NCBI GenBank assembly: GCA_021822495.1
Contig: JAKAQO010000005.1
Location: forward strand, 42,548 to 106,547
DNA length: 64,000 bases
Direction: 5' to 3'
DNA from: a bacterium
GTDB taxonomy: Bacteria > Elusimicrobiota > Elusimicrobia > UBA1565 > UBA9628
Each line of letters opens with the position of its first letter. Within the stretch, counting starts at the first letter, position 1. Below the pieces are notes generated by a model. It saw nothing but the letters and a program-made list of their open reading frames with translations, had not been told where the DNA came from and did no database searches. Both the position numbers and the translations under genes were made by a program. This document shows positions 28,503-49,673 of the stretch, one piece after another.

Positions 28503-28566
28503 AAAAAAAGGGGACAGTCCCCTTTTCTTCCATTCTACAAAAAAAAGGGGACTGTCCCCTTTTTTA
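28503..28566. repeat. REP inverted doublet; cores 28510-28522 and 28547-28559
   Basis: The doublet sits between the mgtA stop and the start of the PLP-enzyme gene. Confidence 0.6.
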
Positions 28567-31255: not shown

Positions 31256-32233
31256 TTGATAGAATTACCTAGCATGACGAAAGAACAGAAGACCTCTTAT
31301 ATCCTTTTTGGACTGTGGGCCGCGCTGATTGTTTGGCTTCAACTGGGAGCGGCATTGCTGGCGGGTCTCATTTCCCTGATGATTTTGGAAGCCGCCAAGA
31401 AACCTTGGTCAAAAAAGTTGGGAGAGACCTCTTCTAAAACCCTGGCTTTATTTATTTTTATCGTCATTTCCCTGGCCTTTTTCTGGGTGCTGGCCGCTTT
31501 CGTGCGCCTGGCCGCCATTCGCGCTCCCATGATTGCGTCCCTCTTTATTCCAAAGATTAAAGCCTTGGCGGATTACTGGGGGATTTCTCTCCCGTTTGAC
31601 AACCTTGACGACATTCGCGCCTTGATCGCCAATTCCGCGAAAGACAATCTCAGGCAGATTACCCATGCCAGTTCTCTTCTTACGAAAGGTTTTCTCCAAA
31701 TCGCTCTTTCAATTTTCGCCGCCATCGCGGCCTTTTGGAGAAATCCAAATAAAGAATCGTCCCACGCCACGTTTAACGACAAGCTCCGCGCGGAAATGTC
31801 CAAGCGAATGGAACTCTTCATGGACGGTTTTAAAAGAGCCTTCGGAGCGCAATTTACGATTTCCCTCATCAACACCGGGCTGGTTTCTTTTTTACTTTTA
31901 ATTCTCCAAATTCCTTACATCCGTTTTTTAATGACGGCAACTTTCGTTTTGGGGCTTTTACCCGTCATTGGAGGCGCGATCACCAACGCCGCGATTTTAG
32001 CGGCAGCCTTGACTGTTTCAACCCGAACCGCGATTTTAGCCTTGATCTCTCTCTTGGTTTTACATCACGCGCAGTATCCCATCCAAGGCCAAGTTCTCGG
32101 CGAACAAATGAAGGTTCCCGCTTGGGAAATTCTCGTGGGTCTAATTTTAGGAGAAGCGATTTTGGGAGTCGCCGGAATGGTTTTGGCTCCGGCTTTGGTT
32201 TTTTATCTTCACTCGGAGTTAAGCCAGTCGTAA
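31256..32233 (+). CDS. Polytopic membrane protein, possibly an AI-2E/PerM-like transporter
   Basis: Eight or more TM helices. The family assignment is weak. Confidence 0.3.
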   Translation: MIELPSMTKEQKTSYILFGLWAALIVWLQLGAALLAGLISLMILEAAKKPWSKKLGETSSKTLALFIFIVISLAFFWVLAAFVRLAAIRAPMIASLFIPKIKALADYWGISLPFDNLDDIRALIANSAKDNLRQITHASSLLTKGFLQIALSIFAAIAAFWRNPNKESSHATFNDKLRAEMSKRMELFMDGFKRAFGAQFTISLINTGLVSFLLLILQIPYIRFLMTATFVLGLLPVIGGAITNAAILAAALTVSTRTAILALISLLVLHHAQYPIQGQVLGEQMKVPAWEILVGLILGEAILGVAGMVLAPALVFYLHSELSQS

Positions 32234-32260
32234 AAAAGGGGACTGTCCCCTTTTTTAGTT
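32233..32260. terminator. REP (core 32238-32250) between convergent genes
   Basis: taAAAAAGGGGACTGTCCCCTTTTTT directly follows the TAA. Confidence 0.55.
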
Positions 32261-32848
32261 GCCGCGGAGAAAAAGCTTGATCATCTCCGCTCCCGCGTAA
32301 AAATAAAGCTCGCAGCGAATGGTAAAATCAGATTTAGACATTACGACATTGGAGACCACCAGCAAATTAGCGCCGTCGACTTTCTTGAATCCCTGTTCAA
32401 TAAGGTTTCGGCGATTTCCCTCCGATATCTCCGGCACGGACAAGATTAGAAGAGTCGAAAATAATTCCCCCAACTCCCCGCAAAAGCCGTGCGCGACGAT
32501 GTTCGATATCTCCTTGACCACGTCCTGGGGGGGAAACTGAGCGCTTGCGCCCACCTGCCGGTAATTTTTGCTCCAAGCCTGCCCTAGCAAAGCGACGCTG
32601 TCAGGAGACATAATCATATGGACGCCCAGGGGAATCCCATCTTGAAGGGGAAGATACGCCGACCAATACGGCTTGTCAGATTCCGGAAAAGTTGAAAAAA
32701 GCGGGGTCGCGAAATTGTGATAAATGGAGGAAGCCGTACATTTCCAGGGTTCTTGGCTTAATTTAGAAAGGTAATCCGCTGTTTTTTGCGCGCCCATATC
32801 CAAGGCGCTTAAAAGCAACTTCTGTTCTCTTGCCGAGAGAGCGTCCAT
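32255..32848 (-). CDS. CheC/CheX/FliY-family CheY-P phosphatase-like protein
   Basis: It contains the phosphatase consensus E-x2-N-x22-P: EISNIVAHGFCGELGELFSTLLILSVP. Confidence 0.55.
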   Translation of the reverse strand: MDALSAREQKLLLSALDMGAQKTADYLSKLSQEPWKCTASSIYHNFATPLFSTFPESDKPYWSAYLPLQDGIPLGVHMIMSPDSVALLGQAWSKNYRQVGASAQFPPQDVVKEISNIVAHGFCGELGELFSTLLILSVPEISEGNRRNLIEQGFKKVDGANLLVVSNVVMSKSDFTIRCELYFYAGAEMIKLFLRGN

Positions 32849-32851
32849 GAC

Positions 32852-33214
32852 TTAAGGGAAAACTTGCGCCAAAGCGGCCTTAATATCATCAACCACAAAG
32901 GGTTTGAGCAAAATTCCTGAAGCTCCCATTAACAAGGCCTGCTTTTGGAGCATTTTTTGATCATTGGCGGTCACGATCAAAATTTTTGCTTGGGGATGTT
33001 TGAGCCGCAATTCTTTTAGAACGAAAAGACCGTCCATATCTGGAAGGGAAATATCCAGGGTCATTAAATCCGGGTTGTGCTTGGCGTAATTGGCGATGGC
33101 GTCTTTGCCATTTTCGGCAAAGCCGACCACCGTGTGCCCCAAGCCTTCAAGAGTCGTAGTTAATAGGTCTCGCATCATCGGCAAGTCTTCGACGACGAAA
33201 ATATTTTTTCCCAT
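32852..33214 (-). CDS. CheY-like single-domain response regulator
   Basis: VVEDLP, the phospho-Asp context LMTLDISLPDMDG, T in LIVTAN, and K in LLKPF. Confidence 0.75.
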   Translation of the reverse strand: MGKNIFVVEDLPMMRDLLTTTLEGLGHTVVGFAENGKDAIANYAKHNPDLMTLDISLPDMDGLFVLKELRLKHPQAKILIVTANDQKMLQKQALLMGASGILLKPFVVDDIKAALAQVFP

Positions 33215-33273
33215 GACTTTTTCTTTTTGATTTCCTCTCTGAACGCCTTATTCTATGCAAAACCCCGCGAAAG

Positions 33274-33651
33274 TCAAGCGTTCAAACGGCGTTCCAGCGC
33301 CTTGACCCGCGCCAGAAGAACTTCTCGTTCAAAGGGCTTGGTCACGTATTCATCCGCGCCCCGGTTGTATCCGCGAATTTGCTCGACAAGCAAAGCCCGG
33401 ACGGTCAGCATGAGAATCGGCAATTGGGCAAAACGAGGATCTGTGCGAATGCGCTCGGTGAGTTGAAGTCCGTCAAGCCTCGGCATATTAAGGTCAAATA
33501 TTCCCATGTCAATTTTATTTTTTTCCAGCTTTTCCCAGCCTTCCTGGCCGTCCACGGCCTCGACCACCTCATAGCCGTCTTCTTCAAGCATCATGCGAAG
33601 GATGTCCCGCACGCTCGCATCGTCATCCGCGATTAGAATTTTTTTAGCCAT
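33274..33651 (-). CDS. Single-domain receiver (CheY-like) response regulator
   Basis: ILIADDD, GIFDLNMPRLDG and VTKPF. Confidence 0.75.
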   Translation of the reverse strand: MAKKILIADDDASVRDILRMMLEEDGYEVVEAVDGQEGWEKLEKNKIDMGIFDLNMPRLDGLQLTERIRTDPRFAQLPILMLTVRALLVEQIRGYNRGADEYVTKPFEREVLLARVKALERRLNA

Positions 33652-33653
33652 CG

Positions 33654-34346
33654 CTATTTTTTCCTCCGCTGGATGACATTGGCGCTGTCCAACTCCCAGA
33701 CATAACCAATGCCGTGAACGGTCTTGATATAGAAGCCTGATTCCCCCAGCTTTTTACGCAGGGCCTCGATATGTTTGTCAACGGTCGAGGCTTGAACGCT
33801 ATCGGAGTCAGAACGAATCATCTGAAGGAGAGTTCTTCTTTCCAAGGCAACCCCGGGGCGTTCCAGGATAAACGCGAGGAGATCAAACTCCGTTTTCGTC
33901 AAATCGAGGGGTTTTTGATTTAAAACCGCAATTCGCCCCAGGCGGTCGATTTCGATTTTTCCGTCTTGAGATTTCAGCGTTCCAACAGCTTCCGGTTTAA
34001 CGAAGCGTCGAAACACCGCCTCAAGCTTAGCCGACAAAAGCTCTCCCGGCATATCCGGAGAAACCACGTCATCGGCCCCGGCGTTTAAAAGTTCGATGAG
34101 GCGCGCCGCATTTTGAAGACGGGAAGAAACTAAAAGAGAAAGCCGTGTTTCTTTCTCCCGAATAAGGTTTAAGCTTTGGGCATCGGGCAAAATTGATTCG
34201 AAGATAATGACGGTTCCCGGGGGCTTCGGCAAAAGGGCCAAAGCGCTTTTAAAATCCGTGCTTCTTAAAACTTTCCAGCCCCGGAGTAAAAATGCCTCCT
34301 CCCAGTTTTTTCCCAGCAATTCCGGCCCCGCGATTAGGATTTCCAT
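33654..34346 (-). CDS. OmpR-family winged-helix regulator with a degenerate (pseudo-)receiver domain
   Basis: The C-terminal trans_reg_C domain is intact (LTKTEFDLLAFILERPG...HGIGYVWE). In the N-terminal receiver, the acidic pocket is replaced (ILIAGPE instead of DD), the phospho-acceptor position is Glu (IIFESILPD), and the conserved Lys is absent. Confidence 0.55.
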   Translation of the reverse strand: MEILIAGPELLGKNWEEAFLLRGWKVLRSTDFKSALALLPKPPGTVIIFESILPDAQSLNLIREKETRLSLLVSSRLQNAARLIELLNAGADDVVSPDMPGELLSAKLEAVFRRFVKPEAVGTLKSQDGKIEIDRLGRIAVLNQKPLDLTKTEFDLLAFILERPGVALERRTLLQMIRSDSDSVQASTVDKHIEALRKKLGESGFYIKTVHGIGYVWELDSANVIQRRKK

Positions 34347-34372
34347 TTATTTAAATTAATCTAGCAAATTGC

Positions 34373-34497
34373 GGAAGAAAAAAAAGGGGACAGTCCCCTT
34401 TTCCTCATAAACTTAAGGTCGGGGACAGTGCCGTCCCTAAGAATTATGAAGAAGAGGCACAGTCCCCTTTTTTCTTCGTTATTTCTTCGTGATTGAT
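34373..34497. repeat. Composite 120-bp REP-containing leader element (copy 1), near-identical to 47086-47210
   Basis: Three REP-like cores (34386-34398; the variant GGGGACAGTGCCGTCCC at 34421-34437; GGCACAGTCCCC at 34456-34467) plus conserved flanks TTCTTCGTYATTTCTTCRTGATT. Confidence 0.6.
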
Positions 34498-34524
34498 CCC
34501 GGCATTTAGACTACACTCTTAAGG

Positions 34525-37500
34525 ATGCGAAAAAAGAACATTTGTGAACTCGTCTCCGAAGGCGCCCAACAAAAACGTTCCCAAAAATTAGGAAGATGGG
34601 GACTCTCCCTAACTCTCCTCATTTTTCTCGCCGCCCAAGCAAAAGCACAGGTGCAAAATATTATCTCGACGCCGACCTATCCAGCCAACGGCTCTTATTT
34701 TAATCTGCAAAACCAAACGCCGAACTTTAACTGGTTCGGCCCTTCCACAACGACAATTCAATTAGCGACTTCTCCTGTTTACAATCTTCAGGTCGGCACT
34801 GACCCCACCTTTGCCGCCGGCCTTGTTATTAACGTGCAAATTGCCGCCGTGATCCCAAGCACCGGCCTCCCAAACGCTTATGGCTCCTACCTGTCTGGAA
34901 CTTCTCTAACCAATAACACCACTTATTATTGGCGCGTCTATGCGACAGATAGCTCCGGAGGCGAAAGTATGTCTTGGAGCACATTTAGCTTTGTGACTGA
35001 TTTTGCCCCTGATTCTAACCTTTCAGCATCTTACTCGGGAACGTTGAACTCTTTAGGACAGACTACTCCAGAAAACCAGTTTGTTTCTTTATCCAATGGC
35101 GCGACATCTCAATTATCCGTTTCGGCTTCATTCAGTGGGATTGCGGTTTCAAGCTCCGCCGTACCGTTAACCGGGGATAGCGCTAGTTTTACACAAGGAA
35201 CCAGCGGCTACGGTGTCCTCTATTCGACCAATTCCGGCACGACCTGGGAGGATTACTCCTCATTAGGCATAAATGTTCCAGCAGCTGGCGGTGGAGCTAC
35301 GATCTGGAATTTAGCTGTTTTTAACGGTTTTCTCTACGCTGGTCTAAGCAACGGTTCTATCATTCACACAAATAATGGAACGAGTTGGAATACGGATTAT
35401 ACTGGTTCAAATTATGGAATTGGTGGTTTTACCATATATAAAAACACTCTTTACGCCTCAAACCACGACGGTAGTAATGCGTATATGGTCTCAATTACCA
35501 ACGCTGGAACGGTCAACCGAGCCACTGTATTCAACTCTGGAGCGGGTGTGAGTAAACCAGTCGTTCTTAATAATACTCTTTTCGTCGAAGCTTCTTATAC
35601 TGGAATCCCCGCAGGAGATCCTGGAGCTGGCAACGCTGGAGGCGGAATTTTTGCGTCACAAGACGGCATCCATTGGGTTCAAACGTCCGGTGTTGGCGTA
35701 TGTAGCGACAACTTTGACCAGCTTTTTACATTTAATGGAGAGCTTTATGCAAATGTACAATCAGGGGGTTTTGGATGCAGCGGGTTATTCGTAAGCCCAG
35801 ATGGGGTCAATTGGACAACAATTGACAATCAAAGCGTTCCAGGAACTGTTAATACCGCCACAGTTTTTAATGGAAAACTTTATATTGGAGTAAACAATGG
35901 AGGCTCAAACCCGCTCCTCTATTCATCCACTAATGGGCAAAGCTGGTCAGCGGACAATGGAACACTGACCCAACCTTCCTTGGGGGGCAGTGTCAACGAT
36001 CTTAATGTGGTCAATGGCAAGCTTTACGCCGGTATTTCCACGACCACTGCCAGAATATATGTGACCGAGGATGGAAACAACTGGTTTCCATCAATTTCAG
36101 GCGGCACAGGACAAACAGGAGCAGGAGCGCCCGTTTATTTTAATGGGAATTTTTATGCCGCCGCTGGTCCCGATATCATCACCATCTCGCCCTTTAGCGC
36201 CTCTCTACCTGGTTCTAATGGAGAGCCTTCTGGAACGCTTTCTGCCGTCAGTCCGCAACTTGCCGCTTCAACCACGACAACTACTTGCGGCGGAGTGTCT
36301 CCTTGCAACGCAACCAACCAAGTCATATTTACCGCAAGCGATATGGCAGGAAACACCCTCATGTCTGGTCCTTATGCTATTTTAGTTGACACCGAGGTCG
36401 GGGTCGCCATTTCAACGCCCAGCTATCCGGGAACGCCGACAGTGGGACAGTCTCCTCCGGGGACAGTCCCTTACGTGAACGTTCAGCCCAATTTCGACTG
36501 GATTGGGCCTTCAACCGGGGTCGCTTCGGCTTTGCAGCAGCCCGCCAATTTTTTTCTTGAGGTCTCATCCAACGATCCAACTTTTTCGCCTTCTAATATT
36601 GTGATTAGCACCTCGACTCCGGTCGTCGTTTATTCCACCAATGTCCCCACCGCCAACGGAGCCTACCTTTCGCCTTACGTGCTGGGAAATAACACCACTT
36701 ACTATTGGCGCATCTATATAAAGGATAATCTGGGCGGAACCAGCCCCACATCCCCAACCTATAAATTTATCACGGATTTTGCTCAACCCGCAGTGTCCAC
36801 CTCCAGCTTTCAGAGCATCAATGCCCAAAGCTCGCTCTTACCGGAAAATCAGTTTAACGATCTCGCTTCGGGCGTCACCGCCCAAATTACGGTCCAAGAT
36901 ACTAATTCAGGCCTTGCCGTTTCGACCAGCGCGCTTTCTTTCGCGGGGGATGGACATGATGACCCTCCAATAACCTCGGGGTTTGGAATTATCTATTCCA
37001 CAAATGCCGGGTTCTCATGGATAGTGCAGTCCACCTCCGCTGAAGCCAACAACGGCAGCGCGGTGGGAACGGGAATTCGCTCATTAGCTGTATTTAATGG
37101 GGATATCTACGCTGGGGATTACAGCGGTCATGTCTATTACAGCGCCGACGGCAACACCTGGAGCGCGGGAACTCCCGGGACAAACCCCATTCAATCTTTA
37201 AGCGTCTTCAATGGAATCTTATACGCCGGAGACGGCGGAGGATATATTTACTCAAGTTCAAACGGCAGCACTTGGAGTACAACTAATGGCGGCTCTGCCG
37301 TTGGGGCAGGCATACTCGCAATGACCGTCTTTAACGGACAACTTTATGCCGGAGATAATTTTGCCCGCGTTTTTGTCATGGATGCAAGTGGAAATTGGCA
37401 TAACGTAGACGGCGGAACTGTTGGAACGAGTTCCATTGAATCCTTGGCCGCGTTCAACGGCCAACTCTATGCCGGAGATTATTATGGAAATATCTATGCC

Positions 37501-40500
37501 AGCACAAACGGAAGCTCTTGGAACAGTCTTGGAACTATCGGCAACTCCGGCTCTCTAATTGAGACCATGGCTGTTTTCAATGGAAAGCTTTACGCTGGAG
37601 ACAGTAATGGGTTTATTCATTTTAGCGCTAATGGAGCGTCATGGACCACCAGTAATAATGGAAGCGCTGTTGGATCTGGAATTACCGCTTTAACTGTCTT
37701 TAACGGCCAACTTTACGCTGTAGACGCTCTTGGTTATGTTCATATCAGCGCAGACGGAGTTCATTGGAACTCAATCAAGGTCGCTACGCAAGGAACGGGA
37801 TTAGCTGGATTTAATGGAAACCTCTATGTTGGCGACTATTACGGCGCCGTCTACAGAGCCATCCCTCTTGCCGCGACGCTTTCCGGGTCCGACGGGACAA
37901 CGGCCAGCCAAACCTTGTCGGCAAACAACCTCAATCTCGTTCAATCCACCACAACCGCGACCTGTGGCGGGACTTCGCCTTGCAGCGCGACCGATCAAAT
38001 CATATTTACCGCCTCTGATTTAGCAGGAAATGTCGTCGAAAGCGGGCCGTACGCGATTTTGGTAGACACCACCGTGGCGCCGGCGATTTCGACGCCTTCC
38101 TATCCTTTAAACGGAGCTTACCTCAATTTCAACCCTAATTTTAACTGGACCGGACCCTCAACCAGCATCGTCTCCGGGCTTTTGGCCCCTTCCTATTATC
38201 AACTTGAGGTTTCAAGCAATGATCCCACCTTCGCGACGGTCTTCGTCAATATTTCCACGCCCATTCCGCCGGTCAATACCGGTCTTTCCACCGATAACGG
38301 CGCCTATATTTCTACTTATACGTTTGCCAATCTGACCACTTATTATTGGCGCGTAAGAACTATTGATGGGTTCGGCGGAACCAGCCCCTGGTCCACAACC
38401 TTTAGTTTTACCACTGATTTCTCAAGTCCAACGGCCGTCGGCGGAAGTTTCGCGACGCTCAACAGTCTCGGGGGGCTTGTTCCAGAAAATCAGGTCACGG
38501 TTCTCCAGTCAGGCGTCACTGCTCAGATTAATATTACCGATATCGGTAGCGGGTTCTCCGCCTTTAATTCCTCAAATTATTCCGTCAGGTATTCCACCAA
38601 CGCCGGCCTCTCCTGGATTTCAGAACCCTTTTCCGCGCTCGCTTTTACGGGCTCTATCGGCCAAACCTCGACTCAAACCTTCACGGCCTACGGTCTTAAT
38701 CTCGCCGCCTCAACCAATTCTTATGTCTGCGGGGGAATTTCTCCTTGCGGCGCAACCAACCAAGTTGAATTTACTTTTTCCGATCAGGCCCTCAATTTCA
38801 GCACGGCCGGCCCTTTTGCCGTCATTGTAGATACTCATTCAACCGATGTTTTGGTCTCCACGGCCAATGTCGCGCCTTTGGGAATCCCCCAAAACACCTC
38901 GGTTGCCTTTATCCGCCTGACCTTGAACAGTCTCACTGGAACCGCACCCTGGACCGGGCTCACGGTTCAAAGGCTCGGCAGTGGAACGGACGCGGATGTT
39001 CAAAACGTCGCCATCTACCGTGATAACGCGGGAACCGGAATATTTTCTCCCTCGGATACTCAAATCACCCAAAATGCGGTCTTTTCGGGGGGAATCGTCA
39101 ATTTAACAATGACCAATCCCGAGAGTATTACGACCTCGACCAAGACCTATTTCCTTGTCTATACCGCGGCCCCGGGGGCGCTGGTCGGAGATGGGCTCGC
39201 GGCGGAAATTACATCAACCGCCTCTTTTACCTTCAGCAACGGATACCAGATGAGTTCGGCCCAGACGACGATTTATCCCTTGATCTCCAGCACCGCCACC
39301 GTGGTCGACGGTCCCAATTATCTCTACATCACTCCGGCGAGCCAAGCCCCCAACGATGCCCCGCCCGGAACAGCCAACATCGAGATGCTTTCTTTAAAAG
39401 CCTATACGAATACTGGAACAAGCACTCTTTCCAAAATTGTATTTCATCTCCTAGGAACCGGGGCTTCTAATGACATCAGCTCCATCTCCATCTACAGAGA
39501 CTCAAACGGCACTGGGGTTTATGCCCCCAATGACAGTTTGGTGACCAGCGGCTCGGACTCCTTTTTTAACGGAGTCTCAACCGTCGCTTTCACGACCACC
39601 ATCGCCTCCGAAACCGTGACCACCTCTCCCATTTATTATTTCGTCCTCATCAGCTTGTCTCCGAACGCGCCATTAGGAGATACCTTAGGAATATCTATTT
39701 CCACTACCTCGGACGTCGAGCTGATAGACGTCTTAGATACGACTACTTTTACGACCAGCCCCGCGGCCTCCTCTCTTTTGACCATTGAATACATCAATAC
39801 CTTGAACGTTCAGGGAGTCAACCAAATCCCGTCCTCCCTTTTACAGGGTCAGCAATACGCCATTTTAAAAGCGAGTTTTACGGTTTCGACTGGGGAAACT
39901 TCGTTTAACGGAATCACTATCACGCGCATAGGACTCGGCCATGATTCGGATGTTTCGGCCGTCAGGGTGTGGCAGGACCCCGCTCCACCCGAGACCTTTA
40001 ACCCCGCGACCTTTTTGCAGTTGAGTTCAGGAACCTTTGTGAACGGAAACGCGCAGCTAAACTTCCCGCTTCAAACCTTGTCCGCCGGAACCACCTACGT
40101 CTATTACGTGACCTATAACATTAGTCCCACCGCCCTTCAGGGAGACACCTTGGGCGGAAGAATTACCAGTAATCTCGATATCTCAGACACCAATCCCGGA
40201 ACGACGATTGTCGGCAATTTCTCGATTAATTCGGCCACTTCCCCCGTGGTTCCAACAACCGCAGGGCTTTTTGTCAGCGCTCAAAATGTCGCCCCGAGTG
40301 ATCTCTTGCAAGGCGCGACCAATCAACAAATGCTCAATTTGACGATGGATACCACTCAATACTCAGTTCTTTTGGGAGCTTTGACCTTTAATTCCTTGGG
40401 AACGGCTTCTTCTTCCGATATTTCGCGGGTGGAAGTCTACCAAGACCTCGTGGGAAACGGAATTTTAAATACATCGACCGACCCGCTTTTAAGCGCGGTT

Positions 40501-42159
40501 TCATACCCCTTTATCTCGGGAACCGGCATCATTCCCTTTTCGCCGGGAATCACCATCAGCACTATTCCCATCCGGCTTCTGGTCGCGGTAGACGTTTCAA
40601 CCGGAGCCAATTATCTCAACAATGATTTTGGAATCGGAATTTCAACTCCCGCCAATATCTCAATCAACGCGCCCAATTTTGTCGTTCCCTCAACCACCAC
40701 ATTCCCGGCCGATTCAAGTATTATTCCCATTACGAAAGCCCCGGATGTCATGAGCGTTTTCCCGACTTCCTTGATGGATGTCAACGGCGTCGTTCAAGGC
40801 CAAAACGCGCCGGCGGCGAAACTGAGTTTAGTCACCCAGCACAGTTCCGTGACCTGGACGACGATTTCCGTTCAAAGAAGCGGCACCCTGCCGGATTCGG
40901 GAGTTGATTCCGTCAATATTTATGACGACGTAGATCAAAATGGTGTTCTTGACTCTTCGGATGTCCTAGTGGGAAGCGCGCCCTTTGTTTCCGGAACAGC
41001 CAATATTTCTTTCTCCACCGCGCAACTGGTCAGCCCCGCAGGAGCGGATTATCTCATTACGCTTCAAATTGACCCTAACGCTACTCCGGGAGACACCATT
41101 GGAATTTCCTTGTCCGGCGTGTCCAACTTTACCGTGTTGCCCCCGGACACCGTCTCGGGTTCAAGCCTTCCGTTTAACTCGGCCTTAGGGCCGGTTCTCA
41201 ATATTAAAACTCCCACTCAACCCATCGTCACTTTCCCGAACGGAGATTATTCCAGCTCCTTTGATTCGGTCGGCTTTATCTGGTATTCAACGGTCGCCGT
41301 CGGTTCCATTTCCAGCGCGGCCTATGCCGTGGGAACGACTCCCGGGGGAACCGATATCGCGCCGTATACCGCCATTCCTTTTGCGGCGTCTAGTTTCACC
41401 GCGACCAATCTTCTCCTCTCTAACGGGGCCACTTATTATGTCTCGGTGGAAGCCACCTCTAACTACGGCTTTACCAGCCCGCCGGGAATCAGCCCCGGGT
41501 TTTTGGTTGATTTAATCACCCCAGGGTCGCCGACCAATCTCAGCGCCAATGTCGGCGTAAGCTCGATTTATCTGACCTGGGATCCGGGAACAGTCGGGCC
41601 CTCAGGCGCTTCGGGATATCTTCTCGAATATTCAGACGTCGAACATCCGACCTGGTATAACGCCAAGACCGGAGCGGTCACCGCCCTGGCCGCCGGCCCC
41701 CATGGAACTCTTTCGGCCAATTTCATTCCCTCTTCGCCGTTTTTGTTCAACAATCCGCCGCAAGGAACCCTTCTTTTCCGCGTTAGTTTAGTCAACGGCG
41801 CGGGGGTTCAAAGCGCCCCGTCCAATTCGATCAGGGTTCTCTTTGGAACGCAGTCAAACGCTGGAATATCGAACGTCTCATCCTATCCCAATCCCTTTAA
41901 CTCAAATTCCGGAGTCGCGACTATCGTCTACACCTTGGATACTCCGGGGAATGTCTCCATTCAAATCTACAGCGTCTTTGGGAGTCTCGTCAAAAGCCTC
42001 TCTTATTCTGGTGGAAGCGTGGGGGGGCAAGCCGGCGTCAATACCGTGACCTGGGACGGAACCGACTCAGGCGGACGCAAAGTCTCCAAGGGCATCTACA
42101 TCGCCGTCCTCAAAGCCAATGGTATGAGCGTCCAATACAAAATCGGGGTCAATCACTGA
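34525..42159 (+). CDS. Giant (2544 aa) secreted repeat-rich surface protein with Asp-box/BNR-like beta-propeller repeats, FN3/Ig-like modules and a T9SS-type C-terminal sorting domain
   Basis: A signal peptide is present. There are three super-repeats of about 560 aa, each with TTYYWR(V/I), S-x-(D/N)-G-x-(S/T)-W propeller repeats and the Cys motif CGG.SPC.AT.Q..FT.SD. Five repeats of about 125 aa follow (..IYRD.NGTG..). An FN3 domain is next (IYLTWDPG), and the protein ends in a C-terminal domain of type PNPFN..ATI.Y.L....V.I.IY...G.LV..L..G..WDG.D..G..V..GIY. Confidence 0.75.
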   Translation: MRKKNICELVSEGAQQKRSQKLGRWGLSLTLLIFLAAQAKAQVQNIISTPTYPANGSYFNLQNQTPNFNWFGPSTTTIQLATSPVYNLQVGTDPTFAAGLVINVQIAAVIPSTGLPNAYGSYLSGTSLTNNTTYYWRVYATDSSGGESMSWSTFSFVTDFAPDSNLSASYSGTLNSLGQTTPENQFVSLSNGATSQLSVSASFSGIAVSSSAVPLTGDSASFTQGTSGYGVLYSTNSGTTWEDYSSLGINVPAAGGGATIWNLAVFNGFLYAGLSNGSIIHTNNGTSWNTDYTGSNYGIGGFTIYKNTLYASNHDGSNAYMVSITNAGTVNRATVFNSGAGVSKPVVLNNTLFVEASYTGIPAGDPGAGNAGGGIFASQDGIHWVQTSGVGVCSDNFDQLFTFNGELYANVQSGGFGCSGLFVSPDGVNWTTIDNQSVPGTVNTATVFNGKLYIGVNNGGSNPLLYSSTNGQSWSADNGTLTQPSLGGSVNDLNVVNGKLYAGISTTTARIYVTEDGNNWFPSISGGTGQTGAGAPVYFNGNFYAAAGPDIITISPFSASLPGSNGEPSGTLSAVSPQLAASTTTTTCGGVSPCNATNQVIFTASDMAGNTLMSGPYAILVDTEVGVAISTPSYPGTPTVGQSPPGTVPYVNVQPNFDWIGPSTGVASALQQPANFFLEVSSNDPTFSPSNIVISTSTPVVVYSTNVPTANGAYLSPYVLGNNTTYYWRIYIKDNLGGTSPTSPTYKFITDFAQPAVSTSSFQSINAQSSLLPENQFNDLASGVTAQITVQDTNSGLAVSTSALSFAGDGHDDPPITSGFGIIYSTNAGFSWIVQSTSAEANNGSAVGTGIRSLAVFNGDIYAGDYSGHVYYSADGNTWSAGTPGTNPIQSLSVFNGILYAGDGGGYIYSSSNGSTWSTTNGGSAVGAGILAMTVFNGQLYAGDNFARVFVMDASGNWHNVDGGTVGTSSIESLAAFNGQLYAGDYYGNIYASTNGSSWNSLGTIGNSGSLIETMAVFNGKLYAGDSNGFIHFSANGASWTTSNNGSAVGSGITALTVFNGQLYAVDALGYVHISADGVHWNSIKVATQGTGLAGFNGNLYVGDYYGAVYRAIPLAATLSGSDGTTASQTLSANNLNLVQSTTTATCGGTSPCSATDQIIFTASDLAGNVVESGPYAILVDTTVAPAISTPSYPLNGAYLNFNPNFNWTGPSTSIVSGLLAPSYYQLEVSSNDPTFATVFVNISTPIPPVNTGLSTDNGAYISTYTFANLTTYYWRVRTIDGFGGTSPWSTTFSFTTDFSSPTAVGGSFATLNSLGGLVPENQVTVLQSGVTAQINITDIGSGFSAFNSSNYSVRYSTNAGLSWISEPFSALAFTGSIGQTSTQTFTAYGLNLAASTNSYVCGGISPCGATNQVEFTFSDQALNFSTAGPFAVIVDTHSTDVLVSTANVAPLGIPQNTSVAFIRLTLNSLTGTAPWTGLTVQRLGSGTDADVQNVAIYRDNAGTGIFSPSDTQITQNAVFSGGIVNLTMTNPESITTSTKTYFLVYTAAPGALVGDGLAAEITSTASFTFSNGYQMSSAQTTIYPLISSTATVVDGPNYLYITPASQAPNDAPPGTANIEMLSLKAYTNTGTSTLSKIVFHLLGTGASNDISSISIYRDSNGTGVYAPNDSLVTSGSDSFFNGVSTVAFTTTIASETVTTSPIYYFVLISLSPNAPLGDTLGISISTTSDVELIDVLDTTTFTTSPAASSLLTIEYINTLNVQGVNQIPSSLLQGQQYAILKASFTVSTGETSFNGITITRIGLGHDSDVSAVRVWQDPAPPETFNPATFLQLSSGTFVNGNAQLNFPLQTLSAGTTYVYYVTYNISPTALQGDTLGGRITSNLDISDTNPGTTIVGNFSINSATSPVVPTTAGLFVSAQNVAPSDLLQGATNQQMLNLTMDTTQYSVLLGALTFNSLGTASSSDISRVEVYQDLVGNGILNTSTDPLLSAVSYPFISGTGIIPFSPGITISTIPIRLLVAVDVSTGANYLNNDFGIGISTPANISINAPNFVVPSTTTFPADSSIIPITKAPDVMSVFPTSLMDVNGVVQGQNAPAAKLSLVTQHSSVTWTTISVQRSGTLPDSGVDSVNIYDDVDQNGVLDSSDVLVGSAPFVSGTANISFSTAQLVSPAGADYLITLQIDPNATPGDTIGISLSGVSNFTVLPPDTVSGSSLPFNSALGPVLNIKTPTQPIVTFPNGDYSSSFDSVGFIWYSTVAVGSISSAAYAVGTTPGGTDIAPYTAIPFAASSFTATNLLLSNGATYYVSVEATSNYGFTSPPGISPGFLVDLITPGSPTNLSANVGVSSIYLTWDPGTVGPSGASGYLLEYSDVEHPTWYNAKTGAVTALAAGPHGTLSANFIPSSPFLFNNPPQGTLLFRVSLVNGAGVQSAPSNSIRVLFGTQSNAGISNVSSYPNPFNSNSGVATIVYTLDTPGNVSIQIYSVFGSLVKSLSYSGGSVGGQAGVNTVTWDGTDSGGRKVSKGIYIAVLKANGMSVQYKIGVNH

Positions 42160-44485: not shown

Positions 44486-44552
44486 AAAAAAGGGGACAGT
44501 CCCCTTTTGGGGACATTTCTTTAAAAAAGGGGACAGTCCCCTTTTTTCTTTG
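44483..44552. repeat. REP doublet in direct orientation (cores 44492-44504 and 44529-44541, both GGGGACAGTCCCC)
   Basis: Both central bases are A, whereas the other doublets are inverted (A...T). The doublet follows the stop of the outer-membrane protein gene. Confidence 0.55.
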
Positions 44553-47085: not shown

Positions 47086-47210
47086 AAAAGGGGACAGTCC
47101 CCTTTTCCTCATAAACTTAAGGTCGGGGACAGTGCCGTCCCTAAGAATTATGAAGAAGAGGCACAGTCCCCTTTTTTTCTTCGTCATTTCTTCATGATTA
47201 AATGCCGCTT
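47086..47210. repeat. Composite 120-bp REP-containing leader element (copy 2), near-identical to 34373-34497
   Basis: About 115 bp are near-identical to copy 1, including the variant core GGGGACAGTGCCGTCCC (47125-47141). Confidence 0.6.
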
Positions 47211-47228: not shown

Positions 47229-48173
47229 ATGAGTGAAAGTCCAAAAGGTTCTATCTTTTCCTCATTAAGGGCATTAGAGGAAGTTCTGGAAGAAACTCCC
47301 ACTGCAATACCTACTCCGCAAAACGTTTCTCCCGCTCCTGTTCAAGCCGCACCACCGCCACCCACTCCCACGCCCATGAGTTCAACGCCGCCCGTTGATT
47401 CTTCAAGCGAAGCTCTCAAATCCGTGGAAGCAAAGATTGAAAAAATCGATCAAAAAATTCAGGAATTAGGAAATCTCCCAATCTCGCCAAATCTTGATCG
47501 CATTGAAGCTCTTGAGAAAAACCTACAACAGATGCAGGAGCGGGCCATCCAGGCAGAAGTTGCGCTCAGAGAACGAGAAAAATCCCAAGAAGCCGCAAGA
47601 CGTGAGACAGAATCTCTTCTTCAAAATCTAGCATCCCAAAGACGACTCGAAGAATCCGACAGGCAAATGAAGGAGAACCTGTCCTACTGCCGGCACCGCA
47701 TCGAGGAATTAGAAGAGCGGCAAGCCTCTCTCAAAATTTCAGATACGCAACAGTCGGAGCATGAGTTTAAATCGCTCTTAAAAAATTTTATGGAACAAAT
47801 CGACCTTAAAACAGCCCCGATTTTAACGTCTCTCCTTGAACTCAAGAAAGAGAATCAAAACCGCGAAAAAGAGAGTCTCAATATGGAAAAAAGGATAGGC
47901 CATCTTGAAACCAAAACCGCTAATAAAAGCCAAGTTGACGCTCTGCGCGAAGACTTCCTCCATTTAAAACAGTCCGTGGAAAAAATTAATTTGGAAACAT
48001 CGGAAAAGCTCGATAAAATAACCGCGGCATTAAGCCTATTGTCGCTTAAACTCCACAAAGATAAGGCAACAGAAGAATTAATCATTCTCGATAAAGAGTT
48101 TCAAAAAATACACTCTATTCTCAACGCCAATATTTCCAACTCTCCCAAACAAACAGGAATAGCCCCTGATTGA
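47229..48173 (+). CDS. Pro-rich N-terminus plus long coiled-coil protein (function unknown; placed in the motor-like cluster)
   Basis: A PAPVQAAPPPPTPTP segment is followed by heptad-rich sequence with abundant E/K/L/Q. The start at 47229 is the second in-frame Met; the ORF tracker starts at 47202. Confidence 0.4.
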   Translation: MSESPKGSIFSSLRALEEVLEETPTAIPTPQNVSPAPVQAAPPPPTPTPMSSTPPVDSSSEALKSVEAKIEKIDQKIQELGNLPISPNLDRIEALEKNLQQMQERAIQAEVALREREKSQEAARRETESLLQNLASQRRLEESDRQMKENLSYCRHRIEELEERQASLKISDTQQSEHEFKSLLKNFMEQIDLKTAPILTSLLELKKENQNREKESLNMEKRIGHLETKTANKSQVDALREDFLHLKQSVEKINLETSEKLDKITAALSLLSLKLHKDKATEELIILDKEFQKIHSILNANISNSPKQTGIAPD

Positions 48174-48211
48174 TTTGGAATTCTCTTTTCTTTCCTTATA
48201 TAATAGGCATC

Positions 48212-48949
48212 ATGGAACTGACATCGATTATCGGCCTTGGAGCAATTTTAACTCTAACCGCAATTGGGCTCGCCACGGGAGGGCTCCCGGCGGTTTTCAT
48301 CAACTGGCACGGAATCGGCATCGTCCTGGGCGGCACTTTTTGCGCCTTGATGATTAACACTCCCCTGGATATCTTGCTCAGAACTGGAGCGGCTATAACA
48401 GATTTAGTTTCAGCCGATCCTTACGTCGATCGCATCGCCCTTGTGGACGCGATCATGGCCTTGGCTCAAGAGGTTCAATCCCGAGGAATCAGCGCCTTTA
48501 ACAACGTCAACAAAACGGTTGCCGCTGGGTATCTCGCTTATGCCGCTCAAATTGCCGTCGAATACAATAATCCTGAAACCCTCCGGCAGGTCCTGGAAAA
48601 TGAGATTATTCAAAACTCCGATTTACAAAATGAAGCGGTCAACGTTTTTAGAACCGCAGGAATTTTGGCGCCGATGTTTGGGCTTTTAGGGACCTTGATC
48701 GGAATTGTCGAAGTTCTGCGCCAAATCGCCAACCCCGCTCAAGTAGGCTCCGCCATGGCAGTCGCCATTACTACCGCTTTTTATGGTATTGCGACGGCTA
48801 ACGTTTTTTGCGTGCCAATAGCTGGGAAATTGAGAATCAGGTATTGGAGAGAAACGCAGGCTAAAACCATGGTTTTAGAAGGCGTCTATGAAATTCTTCA
48901 ACGAACGCCCACCGTCATCATCTCCAGGAAACTAAAATCTTATTTATGA
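48212..48949 (+). CDS. motA: MotA/PomA-type proton-channel stator subunit
   Basis: Four TM helices with a large cytoplasmic loop. The TM3-TM4 core is APMFGLLGTLIGIVEVL...AMAVAITTAFYGIATAN. I chose the ATG at 48212; the ORF tracker's TTG is at 48170. Confidence 0.65.
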   Translation: MELTSIIGLGAILTLTAIGLATGGLPAVFINWHGIGIVLGGTFCALMINTPLDILLRTGAAITDLVSADPYVDRIALVDAIMALAQEVQSRGISAFNNVNKTVAAGYLAYAAQIAVEYNNPETLRQVLENEIIQNSDLQNEAVNVFRTAGILAPMFGLLGTLIGIVEVLRQIANPAQVGSAMAVAITTAFYGIATANVFCVPIAGKLRIRYWRETQAKTMVLEGVYEILQRTPTVIISRKLKSYL

Positions 48950-48975
48950 TAAAAAAGGGACAGTCCCCTTTTTCT
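48950..48975. repeat. REP (core GGGACAGTCCCC, 48957-48968) between motA and motB
   Basis: An intra-operon copy, so perhaps an attenuator rather than a full terminator. Confidence 0.5.
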
Positions 48976-48980
48976 TGATT

Positions 48981-49673
48981 ATGAGACGATCACGGCACGA
49001 AGACCTCGAAAATCAACTCGCGAAATCCGCCCAATGGGCTATTACCTACGGCGATTTCATGAGCTATCTCATGATTTTCTTTCTCATCATGTTCTCTTTT
49101 ACGCTCTCCAAATCCGGAGGGAAAACCACGGAAAACGTTAAATATCAGGAATCCTTGATTAAAATCCAGAAAGTCTTTGGGGGAAAAGGAAGCTCCCTGG
49201 ATTACGATCGCCTCATTAAGCGCGAAAAAGAAGAGTCCATGGTGACCCAACTCAAACAGGCTCTGGACAAGAAAGACTTGTCCAAATACGCGAAAATAGA
49301 AACCTGGGATAAAAAAATTCGATTAATTCTCGCTAGCGCGGTTCTTTTCGATTCAGGGCGAGCGACCTTGGCCCCGCGCTCGGAAAAAATTCTGGCCGCC
49401 GTCGCCCAACAGCTTAAGACTTTGGACAACCCCATTCAAATTGAAGGCCATACCGACAACGTGCCAGTTCGCGGCGGACGTTATAAGTCCAACTGGGAAC
49501 TTTCGATGGCGCGGGCTTATTCCGTGCTGGTCTTTTTGGAAAAGCAGGGCATCGCGCCTCAGCGCTTATCCGCGATTGGCTACGGCAAGTATCATCCCAT
49601 TGCCGACAACAACACCGCGGAAGGACGCGCTAAAAATCGTAGAATCGAGATAGATTTATTACGGACAGAATGA
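48981..49673 (+). CDS. motB: MotB-type stator subunit (single TM with a conserved Asp plus an OmpA-like peptidoglycan-binding domain)
   Basis: AITYGDFMSYLMIFFLIMF carries the channel Asp. The C-terminal OmpA-like region is ILASAVLFDSGRATL...IQIEGHTDN...NWELSMARA...NRRIEI. Confidence 0.7.
   Translation: MRRSRHEDLENQLAKSAQWAITYGDFMSYLMIFFLIMFSFTLSKSGGKTTENVKYQESLIKIQKVFGGKGSSLDYDRLIKREKEESMVTQLKQALDKKDLSKYAKIETWDKKIRLILASAVLFDSGRATLAPRSEKILAAVAQQLKTLDNPIQIEGHTDNVPVRGGRYKSNWELSMARAYSVLVFLEKQGIAPQRLSAIGYGKYHPIADNNTAEGRAKNRRIEIDLLRTE

Follow-up and report, generated by a model that had tools for sequence, protein, structure and literature searches.

The Four-gene Locus and Its Surroundings

In a 64-kb stretch of DNA from an uncultured Elusimicrobia bacterium (the window), which covers part of a ∼145-kb contig, we analyzed four co-directional minus-strand genes encoding an OmpR-type regulator (RR1), two single-domain receivers (RR2 and RR3) and a CheC-like protein (Table 1). 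All their parts belong to known kinds, and the reading frames lie exactly where a preliminary description had placed them. RR1 and RR2 are separated by 2 nt, RR2 and RR3 by 59 nt, and RR3 and the CheC-like gene by 3 nt. The same order is kept in all orthologous loci (79–100% identity), and all four reading frames are intact in every one of them. Protein identities among relatives are 72–90% for the four genes but only 52% for the adjoining giant surface protein (homologues in L005, L006 and L009, the first two located by tblastn). For the close relative L004, no giant gene turned up in the 3.6 kb upstream of RR1. The genome scan for relatives yielded only three close relatives, and a narrower-alignment scan of metagenome loci yielded only two loci, one of them already known.

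Table 1. Features of the locus and its surroundings (window coordinates)
Feature	Position	Strand	Size or placement	Basis
AI-2E family transporter	31256..32233	+	convergent with CheC-like gene	Pfam
REP palindrome between A and T runs	32238..32250		4 nt after CheC-like stop; probable terminator	
CheC-like protein (fourth gene)	32255-32848	-	197 aa	ORF
Active-site codons D109-x3-E113-x2-N116-x22-P139	32432..32524	-		read from sequence
RR3	32852-33214	-	120 aa	ORF
Promoter-like TTGACT-16-TAGAAT	33250..33277	-	RR2-RR3 gap; 10/12 consensus matches	
RR2	33274-33651	-	125 aa	ORF
RR1	33654-34346	-	230 aa	ORF
Shared divergent leader	34347..34524		178 bp; three REP copies (34386, 34421, 34455)	
Direct-repeat box TTCTTCG-TTA-TTTCTTCGTGA	34472..34492	+	repeats 11 bp apart; 33 nt upstream of giant-gene ATG	
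Giant surface protein, C-terminal T9SS-type sorting domain	34525..42159	+	2544 aa	Pfam
HisKA+HATPase_c+FliF_C+FliG_M+FliG_C kinase	44562-47075	+		Pfam; start read from sequence
Second box copy, 1 mismatch	47177..47197	+	between kinase gene and unknown-MotA-MotB genes	
MotA and MotB homologues	48170..49673	+		MotA_ExbB, MotB_plug, OmpA

The four genes diverge from the giant surface-protein gene and share a REP-containing leader with it, as had been described. Three copies of the REP palindrome GGGGACWGTCCCC are located in this leader, and the window contains 40 strand-wise matches at ∼22 places, compared with 0.07 expected. The copy behind the CheC-like stop codon folds into an RNA hairpin of −14.5 kcal/mol (z −4.5); it was folded separately, as the terminator scan does not list it, and probably serves as a bidirectional terminator common to the CheC-like and the convergent AI-2E transporter genes. 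The neighboring P-type ATPase (28564-31212) was assigned from precomputed matches, and an IS200-like gene is present near the locus. The earlier observation that CheA, CheW and MCP are missing from the window holds among its plausible genes: none of these domains was found in ∼50 of the 74 listed reading frames of ≥110 amino acids, the frames left unscanned being those that overlap longer ones. Flagellar-type domains in the window are confined to the kinase fusion and MotAB.

RR1 Is Predicted to Be an OmpR-type Pseudo-receiver

RR1 had been described as an OmpR-like protein with an intact winged helix but with a receiver that lacks the DD pocket, the acceptor aspartate and the conserved lysine, and both parts of this assignment stand. 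The sole Pfam domain in RR1 is Trans_reg_C (PF00486, E = 2.8e-19), and Response_reg (PF00072) is not found in it at E ≤ 0.1. Full-length OmpR/PhoB models from NCBIfam cover residues ∼20 to 216. The AF2 model (pLDDT 79.7) reveals a (βα)5 fold followed by a wHTH, and in full-length Foldseek comparisons it matches DrrB, PrrA, KdpE and CosR. RR1 thus has the OmpR/PhoB arrangement of a winged-helix Trans_reg_C domain behind a receiver-fold domain.

We mapped the five conserved receiver positions by alignment to CheY, PhoB and OmpR. Gly-7 and Pro-8 occupy the positions of the DD pair, Glu-50 that of the acceptor aspartate, Ser-75 that of the threonine and Pro-97 that of the lysine. No acidic-pocket residues are recovered by these alignments, and the serine is the sole residue compatible with the quintet (DD, D, T/S, K). 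All seven RR1 orthologues contain a glutamate at the acceptor position and lack both the DD pair and the lysine. They form only 7 clusters of ≥72% identity, and the next matches are canonical OmpR regulators of ≤43% identity. Judged from the model, RR1 is an OmpR-type pseudo-receiver that has kept its fold and lost four of the five residues of phospho-chemistry, in agreement with the published definitions of aspartate-less and pseudo-receivers (PMC4395418, PMC12632262).

ChxR from Chlamydia and CmrT from Clostridioides difficile are OmpR-type aspartate-less regulators with a glutamate at the acceptor position (PMC4395418, PMC3960148, PMC12548384). RR1 shares their OmpR/PhoB architecture, the glutamate in place of the phospho-aspartate and further pocket changes, but it additionally lacks both acidic pocket residues and the lysine. 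Also in contrast to these systems, RR2 has no DNA-binding domain and the window operon holds no kinase gene.

RR2 Is Encoded with RR1 beside a Conserved FliG-Kinase Cluster

RR2 and RR3 are both canonical receivers, each with a Response_reg score above threshold (cut-off 30.2 bits) and a complete quintet. RR2 (1.7e-29, 102.6 bits) contains Asp-10/Asp-11, Asp-53, Thr-83 and Lys-105, and RR3 (3.7e-28, 98.3 bits) contains Glu-9/Asp-10, Asp-54, Thr-82 and Lys-104. The preliminary description of two CheY-like receivers is correct in that both are canonical and stand alone, and it fits RR3; RR2, however, is of the OmpR/PhoB type. Among the NCBIfam matches listed for RR2, 24 of 25 are OmpR-family models and the remaining one is PleD, and its best alignments are with the receiver halves of PhoB, CseB, RpaB, VanR and OmpR. 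An unusual valine (Val-84) follows the conserved threonine of RR2, at position T+1. In the Streptomyces regulator BldM, the residue at T+1 is thought to hinder phosphorylation (PMC12632262), and because RR2 also has a valine there, it may itself act without being phosphorylated.

The association of RR1 with RR2 is found in close relatives and in one distant Elusimicrobia genome (L025), where a gene for an OmpR-like pseudo-receiver overlaps the next receiver gene by 4 nt. This second receiver shares 55% sequence identity with RR2 and has an isoleucine at T+1. The RR1-like proteins are 14% identical in the active-site half of the receiver, 43% in the segment from β4 to α5 and 35% in the wHTH. 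The tight coupling of the two genes and the conserved α4-β5-α5 dimer face argue for a partnership of RR1 and RR2. Directly downstream of the pair, L025 encodes a giant protein (2250 aa), a TPR protein, an HK-FliG kinase, an unknown gene, MotA and MotB, whereas RR3 and the CheC-like gene do not accompany the pair.

The window's counterpart of this cluster includes the histidine kinase fused to FliG that had been noted near the locus, now assigned as HisKA, HATPase_c, FliF_C, FliG_M and FliG_C in one polypeptide. It is 40% identical to the L025 kinase, and the order of the cluster is kept in L021, L022 and L025. The kinase fusion occurs in ∼70 full-length clusters, the named ones nearly all from Elusimicrobia, and thus in far more lineages than the high-identity RR1 orthologues (7 clusters). 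Pfam domains of the giant protein include DUF6242, Ig_Rha78A_N, FlgD_ig and fn3, and its TIGR04183 score of 23.0 bits equals the cut-off. The best NCBIfam models for MotA and MotB are flagellar stators, all with scores below their cut-offs. Within the library searched, nothing relevant came up on the kinase-FliG fusion or on FliG or MotA in Elusimicrobia. The RR1/RR2 pair seemingly serves as control arm for an unusual gene cluster whose kinase is fused to flagellar-rotor parts, and this kinase is the putative cognate kinase of the locus. In Campylobacter jejuni, the activity of the FlgS kinase depends on FliF and FliG (PMC3760246), which provides a functional precedent for the fusion; there, however, the three are separate proteins in a cell with a real flagellum, whereas in the window a single polypeptide combines them and other flagellar genes are absent.

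The Fourth Protein Belongs to the CheC/CheX/FliY Superfamily

The fourth protein contains the E-x2-N-x22-P CheY-P phosphatase consensus that had been read from its sequence (Glu-113, Asn-116 and Pro-139). With Asp-109 it conforms to the [D/S]-x3-E-x2-N-x22-P active-site pattern, and this motif is invariant in seven homologues. When we aligned 43 diverse family members, Gly-19, Glu-113 and Asn-116 were the sole invariant columns and Pro-139 was kept in ≥90% of the sequences; the catalytic residues remain invariant down to ∼18–20% identity within the family. Among 1.84 billion proteins, the sub-family has 57 representatives at 50% identity. Across 63 proteins, E-x2-N-x20-24-P is found at the second site in 61, whereas only one protein (P0174) shows the full consensus at the first site. 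In the window protein, this first site is degenerate, with Ser-14 and Asp-17 replacing the glutamate and asparagine.

As a single sequence, the protein returned no match in a PDB search, nor in Pfam and NCBIfam at E ≤ 0.1; the Pfam CheC and CheX models (PF04509 and PF13690) do not recognize it. A 7-sequence profile retrieved CheC at an E-value of only 1.2, and the assignment comes from structure prediction and a wider family profile. The predicted structure has the CheC-type α/β fold with two pseudo-symmetric lobes, and the profile built from 43 members (A3) matches CheC (2.6e-19 and 2.9e-17) and FliY (3.7e-8) in the PDB. By fold, profile and motif, the fourth protein belongs to the CheC/CheX/FliY (CXY) phosphatase superfamily. 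CheC, FliY and CheX hydrolyze CheY∼P using the same kind of active site. On this basis, the fourth protein is of the CheC class, with a single intact active site (the second) and a predicted phosphatase activity.

CheC from Thermotoga maritima and Bacillus subtilis and a CheC-like protein from Haloarcula marismortui (PDB IDs 1xkr, 2f9z and 3qta) share this two-lobed fold of ∼200 amino acids and carry the E-x2-N-x22-P helix in the second lobe, as does the window protein, and the profile match to them is significant. The Haloarcula protein also lacks the Glu/Asn pair in the first helix in our alignments. Identity with CheC amounts to only 12–15%, however, the first site of the window protein is degenerate, and no CheD, CheA, CheW or MCP is encoded nearby, whereas members of its family are coupled or fused to their own receiver in the contexts seen. 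The protein is thus not a class I chemotaxis CheC, its first site being degenerate and che domains being absent from the window and from the homologous loci. Nor is it a CheX, a class of ∼150-residue proteins with a single lobe pair and one site, recognized by CheX as the closest fold match. Nor is it a FliM middle domain: the catalytic Glu/Asn are present and invariant, matches to FliM are weaker, and neither FliN nor flagellar genes are encoded nearby. That the protein acts chiefly as an adaptor in the manner of FliM, recognizing RR3∼P and attaching to the FliG part of the kinase so as to couple RR3 to MotAB/FliG, is highly improbable.

One might also regard the four genes as decaying remnants that are now functionless, as the active site of the RR1 receiver is lost, REP elements are abundant and the IS200-like gene is close. 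We find this scarcely credible, given intact reading frames in every orthologous locus, the 72–90% identities compared with 52% for the giant protein, and the invariance of the catalytic residues across the family.

RR3 and the CheC-like Protein Form a Separately Conserved Pair

RR3 is 38–84% identical to receivers that adjoin or are fused to CheC-like homologues, but 28% identical to RR2. These partner receivers form a family of their own with a ‘TANDQ’ signature (‘VTANDQ’ in RR3). Outside the window's own clade, a receiver gene is found immediately 5′ of the CheC-like gene in 8 of 8 contexts, which represent seven distinct loci since L020 encodes P0128 (L007, L008, L012, L016 and L020, with L015 and L018 truncated). 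The two genes mostly overlap by 4 nt. In four natural fusions, the receiver precedes the CheC-like domain (P0142, P0161 and P0176) or follows it (P0150), indicating that receiver and phosphatase form a self-contained unit. A ‘CheC-like’ class in a census of Pseudomonas syringae response regulators (PMC2222644), which we take to mean a receiver attached to a CheC-like domain, resembles these fusions by its description, whereas the window has separate, tightly coupled genes. The genome of one orthologue contains a paralogous receiver/CheC-like pair elsewhere.

RR3 and its partner might simply be an ordinary CheY and CheC, with CheA, CheW and MCPs encoded elsewhere in the genome, of which our 64 kb covers only part of one contig. 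The JGI name of a 79% identical orthologue is ‘CheY-P-specific phosphatase CheC’, and the best NCBIfam match of RR3 is an archaeal CheY model. Its scores, however, fall far below the curated cut-offs (76.4 versus 200 for CheY_Halo and 52 versus 189 for the Escherichia coli-type CheY), and it lacks a che context, such that we do not class it as a chemotaxis CheY. No che gene was found among the plausible genes of the window or within 6–10 kb of any homologous receiver/CheC-like pair, and CheD is likewise missing. The failure of the Pfam CheC/CheX models, the receiver-phosphatase fusions and the restriction of flagellar-type domains to the kinase fusion and MotAB also speak against this explanation, which we regard as very unlikely.

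The RR3/CheC-like pair occurs without RR1 and RR2 in five or more loci whose flanks are informative. The distant homologues lack RR1, RR2, the giant gene and the kinase within the DNA recovered, some of these contigs being very short. As the pairs reside in unrelated neighborhoods, nothing ties them specifically to the FliG-fused kinase. The link to this kinase drawn in the preliminary description gains support for RR1/RR2 from the conserved gene order in L025, but not for RR3 and the CheC-like protein.

The 59-nt gap between RR2 and RR3 contains a promoter-like site whose −35 hexamer and flanking ‘AAGGCG’ are invariant in the orthologous gaps (79–100% protein identity). The hexamer includes the RR2 stop codon, and it is only by consensus match that we recognize the site as one from which RR3 and the CheC-like gene might be transcribed separately. 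A single operon under the FliG-fused kinase had been envisaged. On this reading, both receivers would be phosphorylated, the CheC-like protein would reset them, and RR1 would be constitutive, controlled by its expression and independent of a partner. The genes are indeed co-directional and tightly spaced, with their order kept in all orthologous loci and one clear hairpin terminator, at the end only; moreover, a glutamate at the acceptor can mimic the phosphorylated state, and phosphorylation is not needed for ChxR and CmrT to act (PMC4395418, PMC12548384). Yet the evolutionary ranges of the two pairs differ, RR3/CheC-like being found alone in the loci described above and RR1/RR2 alone in L025. 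The L025 counterpart of RR1 has retained the acceptor aspartate although its acid pocket and lysine are missing, and thus the glutamate is not the conserved feature. The coupling to RR2 and the conserved dimer face favor a partnership over an RR1 that acts on its own. We therefore consider the single-operon model unlikely. The four genes of the proposed operon are better described as a clade-specific juxtaposition of two separately conserved, tightly coupled pairs.

A Conserved Direct-repeat Box Precedes the Giant Gene

The shared leader contains a direct-repeat box, a candidate operator for RR1. Its consensus TYCTTCR-N3-TYTCTTCGTGA precedes the giant gene in four lineages, L025 among them, and it is absent from 13 other fetched loci, among them all those that contain only receiver/CheC-like pairs. 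At ≤2 mismatches, the window has two matches compared with 0.06 expected. L021 and L022 have an exact copy at the position equivalent to 47177..47197. We rejected the second box as independent evidence, because it lies inside a ∼110-bp REP cassette duplicated from the leader (34380-34492), and in relatives both boxes follow similar arrays with a 10–11-bp period. Two box copies in duplicated repeat cassettes of any one genome are not independent; only conservation across genomes counts.

A Model with Two Signaling Modules

On balance, we lean toward two signaling modules that stand side by side in one clade: a split regulator formed by RR1 and RR2, and a receiver with its phosphatase, formed by RR3 and the CheC-like protein. 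In the split regulator, RR2 would hold the phospho-chemistry and RR1 the DNA-binding domain, behind a decayed receiver with a conserved dimer face. This module would be part of the deeply conserved cluster of T9SS-tailed giant protein, TPR protein, HK-FliF_C-FliG kinase and MotAB. The FliG-fused kinase most likely phosphorylates RR2, and RR2∼P may then pair with RR1, which would bind the direct-repeat box before the giant gene and before the unknown-motAB genes.

Pseudo-receiver/receiver partnerships have precedents in CmrT/CmrR and WhiI/BldM (PMC12548384, PMC12632262). CmrT (with Glu-53) is co-transcribed with CmrR, a canonical regulator that can serve as its pairing partner (PMC12548384). 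In Streptomyces, BldM, a regulator with a complete quintet and a valine at T+1, as in RR2, pairs with the atypical WhiI to give a new DNA specificity (PMC12632262); unlike RR1 and RR2, both proteins have NarL-type DNA-binding domains and their genes are not adjacent. RR1/RR2 would represent a natural split of phospho-chemistry and DNA binding onto separate, co-translated proteins, and a directly testable case for how bacterial pseudo-receivers are controlled, a question raised in PMC12632262.

In the second module, RR3 would be phosphorylated on Asp-54 by a kinase encoded away from the pair. The CheC-like protein would bind RR3∼P, with Glu-113 and Asn-116 positioning a water molecule for hydrolysis of the acyl phosphate. 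As a dedicated phosphatase would act on RR3∼P, the pair could be a short-lived switch or a phosphate sink, operating outside any chemotaxis pathway. In this clade, it may drain phosphate from the same kinase that serves RR2. DifE of Myxococcus xanthus is drained in this way by DifD and DifG, a CheY-like phosphate sink and a CheC-like phosphatase that restrain exopolysaccharide production (PMC4671073). The two systems share a stand-alone receiver with a CheC-type phosphatase, the Dif output is non-flagellar and at the cell surface, and the Dif kinase also passes phosphate to another single-domain receiver, EpsW (PMC4671073), a situation we liken to that of the window. The Dif proteins, however, are encoded together with an MCP, CheW and a CheA-type kinase in one chemosensory cluster, whereas the window has none of these and its candidate kinase is of the HisKA type with FliF/FliG parts.

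A speculative and rather improbable extension is that the rotor-built kinase faces MotAB, such that ion-driven torque, or load from the giant adhesin, would trigger phosphorylation and, via RR2/RR1, act on the box of the adhesin and stator genes, with RR3 and the CheC-like protein setting the decay. If correct, such a two-component system would serve mechanosensing or surface motility without a flagellum and without chemotaxis proteins, and RR1/RR2 would provide the transcriptional output of a machine that is common in Elusimicrobia but has not been described before. Apart from this extension, our analysis would connect both modules with the conserved kinase-FliG-MotAB cluster of this group, and it offers experimenters a concrete candidate operator and possible partners for phosphotransfer.

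The CheC-like proteins define an unannotated CheC sub-family that has a single site, lies outside chemotaxis clusters and is missed by standard domain libraries, its members being paired with or fused to a receiver of their own. This sub-family would add to the notion that ordinary two-component pathways have phosphatases devoted to their tuning. In L007, where the CheC-like protein is 57% identical, a convergent AI-2E transporter gene is located beside the RR3/CheC-like pair, as in the window.

Organization of the four-gene locus

The four genes had been described as co-directional on the minus strand, and their ORFs indeed lie head to tail, at exactly the stated coordinates (see table), separated by spacers of 2 (RR1-RR2), 59 (RR2-RR3), and 3 nt (RR3-CheC-like). 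The window comes from an uncultured member of the Elusimicrobia, and close relatives of the locus are found in MAGs titled 'Elusimicrobia bacterium'. The 59-nt gap contains a sigma-70-like site (TTGACT-16-TAGAAT), the first half of which is kept in relatives and whose -35 hexamer takes in the RR2 stop codon. A perfect REP palindrome between A and T runs is located 3' of the CheC-like stop codon (fold -14.5 kcal/mol, z -4.5). This palindrome, GGGGACWGTCCCC, is a REP-like intergenic element that occurs at ∼22 places in the window, giving 40 strand-wise matches where 0.07 are expected. The reported divergence from the giant surface-protein gene across a common REP leader is borne out by a leader of 178 bp that contains three REP copies and by the 2544-aa gene opposite. 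The giant and TPR genes are separated by an ORF for an IS200-like Y1 transposase that may be REP-associated; the ORF is missing from the corresponding place in L021, a relative with 83% identity.

Coordinates of features in the window
Feature	Position	Strand	Size	Remarks
RR1	33654-34346	-	230 aa	ORF
RR2	33274-33651	-	125 aa	ORF
RR3	32852-33214	-	120 aa	ORF
Fourth gene (CheC-like)	32255-32848	-	197 aa	ORF
Kinase (HisKA, FliG fusion)	44562-47075	+
Unassigned protein, MotA, MotB	47202-49673	+
HEAT-repeat protein, CHASE2 cyclase	49687-52718	+
Candidate box, TTCTTCG-TTA-TTTCTTCGTGA	34472-34492			two direct repeats 11 bp apart, 33 nt 5' of giant-gene ATG
Second box copy	47177-47197			5' of uncharacterised-motAB genes; exact copy there in relatives
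Duplicated cassettes	34380-34492, 47086-47200		∼110 bp
GGGGACWGTCCCC sites, e.g.	1596, 10154, 23235, 26225, 28510, 32238, 34386, 42171, 44492, 47090, 53443, 59175
Y1 transposase ORF	42153-42827	-
NarL-type regulator	18774-19490	-
Polysaccharide-export cluster	12814-21714
TPR-Ser/Thr protein kinase	1657-4086	+
Two DUF4143 AAA ATPases	7444-9828			opposite orientation
PIN gene	10178-10953	-		weak Phd/YefM antitoxin match upstream

RR1 carries a degenerate receiver

Pfam detects the winged-helix Trans_reg_C domain alone in RR1 (E 2.8e-19) and recognizes no receiver domain, and NCBIfam full-length OmpR-family models span most of the protein. In the AF2 model, the winged helix, which had been called intact, comes after a regular (beta-alpha)5 domain with pLDDT ∼85. 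With this model, Foldseek aligns ∼225 columns to DrrB, PrrA, KdpE, CosR, and other family members. An alignment with canonical CheY, PhoB, and OmpR sequences places G7, P8, E50, S75, and P97 at the phospho-chemistry positions. Alignment with canonical sequences, as proposed in the preliminary description, did not recover the acidic pocket, and the DD pocket and Lys are absent and the acceptor is Glu, as described there. All three features recur in seven of seven orthologue clusters (72-100% identity), beyond which the next database matches are canonical OmpR regulators with ≤43% identity. Because the acceptor is Glu and the acidic pair and Lys are missing in all seven clusters, RR1 fits both published definitions, that of a pseudo-receiver and that of an aspartate-less receiver. 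The Asp is absent from about 4% of receivers, Glu being the commonest substitute (26%), and the aspartate-less kind accounts for ∼2% of OmpR-type regulators (PMC4395418). Aspartate loss of the RR1 type is not rare in itself, and the characterized Glu-bearing examples include ChxR and CmrT (PMC3960148, PMC12548384).

RR2 and RR3 are complete receivers of different types

Both single-domain proteins are full receivers, as proposed, with Pfam scores of 102.6 (RR2) and 98.3 bits (RR3) at a cut-off of 30.2, yet they share only 28% sequence identity with each other. RR2, previously considered CheY-like, aligns best with the receiver halves of PhoB, CseB, RpaB, VanR, and OmpR and is of the OmpR type. 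The best alignments of RR3 are to CheY, RssB, CheB, and NarL types, all with curated cut-offs far above its scores. The T+1 residue of RR2 is Val (codon 84, 33400-33402), and Ile in its counterpart (1127-1510) at the distant related locus L025. Ala or Gly occupies this position in 74% of receivers, and in BldM a T+1 Val is suspected of hindering or blocking phosphorylation (PMC12632262).

The fourth protein is a CheC-class protein with one active site

As a single-sequence query, the CheC-like protein matched nothing in Pfam, NCBIfam, or the PDB, and a word-indexed search returned only seven clusters, one of which carries the JGI name CheC. The reported E-x2-N-x22-P consensus is present in all seven, as D109-x3-E113-x2-N116-x22-P139. 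CheC structures are the first Foldseek matches of its AF2 model (pLDDT 84.5, pTM 0.82), with E values of 8e-13 to 4e-10 and TM scores of 0.69-0.76. When 1.84 billion representatives were searched exhaustively with a profile, 57 relatives emerged. Among the 43 that were aligned, down to ∼18-20% identity, only G19, E113, and N116 are invariant, and W35 and P139 are conserved in ≥90%; selection has thus maintained the catalytic pair E113/N116. The 43-member profile matches solved chains of CheC (2.6e-19 and 2.9e-17) and FliY (3.7e-8). Of 63 proteins, 61 have the active-site motif at the second site, and only one has a full consensus motif at the first. Given this fold, family profile, motif position, and set of invariant residues, the fourth protein is of the CheC class with one active site, in the second lobe. 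The earlier assignment to the CheX/CheC type holds for the phosphatase superfamily, and the class is CheC.

RR3 and the CheC-like protein form a module of their own

A receiver gene is located directly upstream of every CheC-like homologue with readable context (L007, L008, L012, L016, and L020), the two genes mostly overlapping by 4 nt, and receiver C-termini are seen upstream of the CheC-like genes on two truncated contigs (L015 and L018). Four representatives are receiver/CheC-like fusions, in either domain order. The partner receivers share 38-84% identity with RR3 and a common 'TANDQ' signature, compared with 25-30% identity with RR2. Within the DNA recovered, these pair loci contain no RR1, RR2, giant gene, kinase, or che genes. 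A receiver-coupled CheC sub-family, missing from annotation, is new here. One genome holding an orthologue of the window pair also contains a paralogous receiver and CheC-like pair (5636-6594 in L012/L013/L014; GCA_027326945.1 and others), whose CheC-like protein has 35% identity to that of the window by tblastn. This pair has a DUF192 gene on one side and a gene for a cNMP-binding patatin-like phospholipase on the other; a canonical OmpR regulator is encoded convergently downstream.

RR1 and RR2 are tied to a kinase-FliG-MotAB cluster

The FliG-fused histidine kinase reported nearby combines HisKA and HATPase_c domains, two predicted membrane segments, a FliF C-terminal piece, and FliG middle and C domains; we found no description of this fusion in the literature searched. 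About 70 full-length clusters (37-100% identity) contain it, those with names being nearly all Elusimicrobia. The cluster of kinase, giant protein, and TPR gene is retained down to 40% kinase identity (L021, L022, and L025), and in close relatives the gene order of the window is retained all the way from the four genes to the kinase and MotAB. In L025, at 40% kinase identity, all cluster genes are on one strand, in the order OmpR-like protein (weak receiver match), 127-aa receiver, giant protein, TPR protein, kinase-FliF_C-FliG, uncharacterized gene, MotA, and MotB, and no CheC-like ORF was found. The 127-aa receiver shares 55% identity with RR2. The OmpR-like protein shares 30% with RR1; it retains the Asp but lacks the acidic pair and Lys. 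Identity with RR1 is 14% in the receiver active-site half, 43% in beta4-alpha4-beta5-alpha5, and 35% in the DNA-binding domain, the conserved part of the RR1 receiver being the dimerization face. The genes of the proposed single operon comprise two modules with different histories, RR1+RR2 (module A) and RR3+CheC-like (module B), the former being tied to the cluster. Such a conserved association of a pseudo-receiver/receiver split pair with an unusual cluster is new here, although all of the individual parts belong to known kinds.

For the kinase and TPR genes, the mechanical ORFs begin too early, by REP read-through ('KKGTVPF', 'KKGDSPLF'; 44241-44561 and 42161-42770), the true kinase start being 44562; the TPR protein has 571 aa in a relative versus a 774-aa ORF in the window. 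The giant protein (34525-42159, + strand) has at its C terminus a T9SS type A sorting domain, whose TIGR04183 score of 23.0 bits exactly reaches the cut-off, and is fast-evolving, with 52% identity to relatives in which the neighboring ATPase shares 93-95%. In L004, the closest relative (87% CheC-like identity), no giant-gene homologue was found in the 3.6 kb upstream of RR1; this region (1-3600) appears rearranged or poorly coding. The HEAT-repeat/CHASE2 adenylate/guanylate cyclase order after MotB is kept in L021 but not in L025, which has a FlgO/CsgG-like gene instead.

A candidate operator upstream of the giant gene

OmpR/PhoB dimers usually target tandem repeats one helical turn apart, and no winged-helix protein other than RR1 is conserved in the cluster. 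Relatives carry the pattern TYCTTCR-N3-TYTCTTCGTGA upstream of the giant gene, as does L025, whose leader is otherwise unalignable; this pattern is a candidate operator. The window contains two matches at ≤2 mismatches (0.06 expected). Both copies end near-exactly duplicated cassettes with three REP copies, and independent support therefore comes only from conservation across genomes. L021 and L023 have arrays of 10-11-bp 'TTTCCGTT'-type repeats at the same two places, also inverted towards RR1, and L004 has an exact box copy at 1250-1270 (-).

Proposed mechanism

No CheA, CheW, MCP, CheD, CheR, or CheB domain was detected in the plausible genes of the window (∼50 of 74 listed ORFs ≥110 aa scanned), as reported for the first three, or in any related locus, and the locus is probably not a chemotaxis system. 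The gene structures, folds, motifs, conservation patterns, and neighborhoods are observed directly. On this basis we consider a two-module mechanism most likely, and infer its phosphotransfers and its protein and DNA contacts. RR2 would be phosphorylated, most plausibly by the adjacent-cluster kinase, and pair via alpha4-beta5-alpha5 with RR1, which would then bind the box as part of a split regulator. CmrT/CmrR and WhiI/BldM are precedents for such pairing (PMC12548384, PMC12632262). By analogy with CheC, FliY, and CheX, phosphorylated RR3 would be hydrolyzed via E113 and N116 of the CheC-like protein; with this private phosphatase, RR3 would therefore act as a short-lived switch or phosphate sink. 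The whole arrangement resembles the Myxococcus Dif system, in which one kinase serves both an output receiver and a sink of the CheY-like type, the latter drained by a CheC homologue, to control a surface polymer (PMC4671073). The first observation is confirmed; its interpretation was largely right, and is refined by the single-site CheC class, the OmpR-type RR2, and the two modules.

Other genes in the window

Within a glycosyltransferase/methyltransferase/polysaccharide-export cluster lies an orphan response regulator of the NarL type, which has a canonical receiver and no adjoining kinase. The PIN gene and its upstream neighbor are a probable toxin-antitoxin pair.
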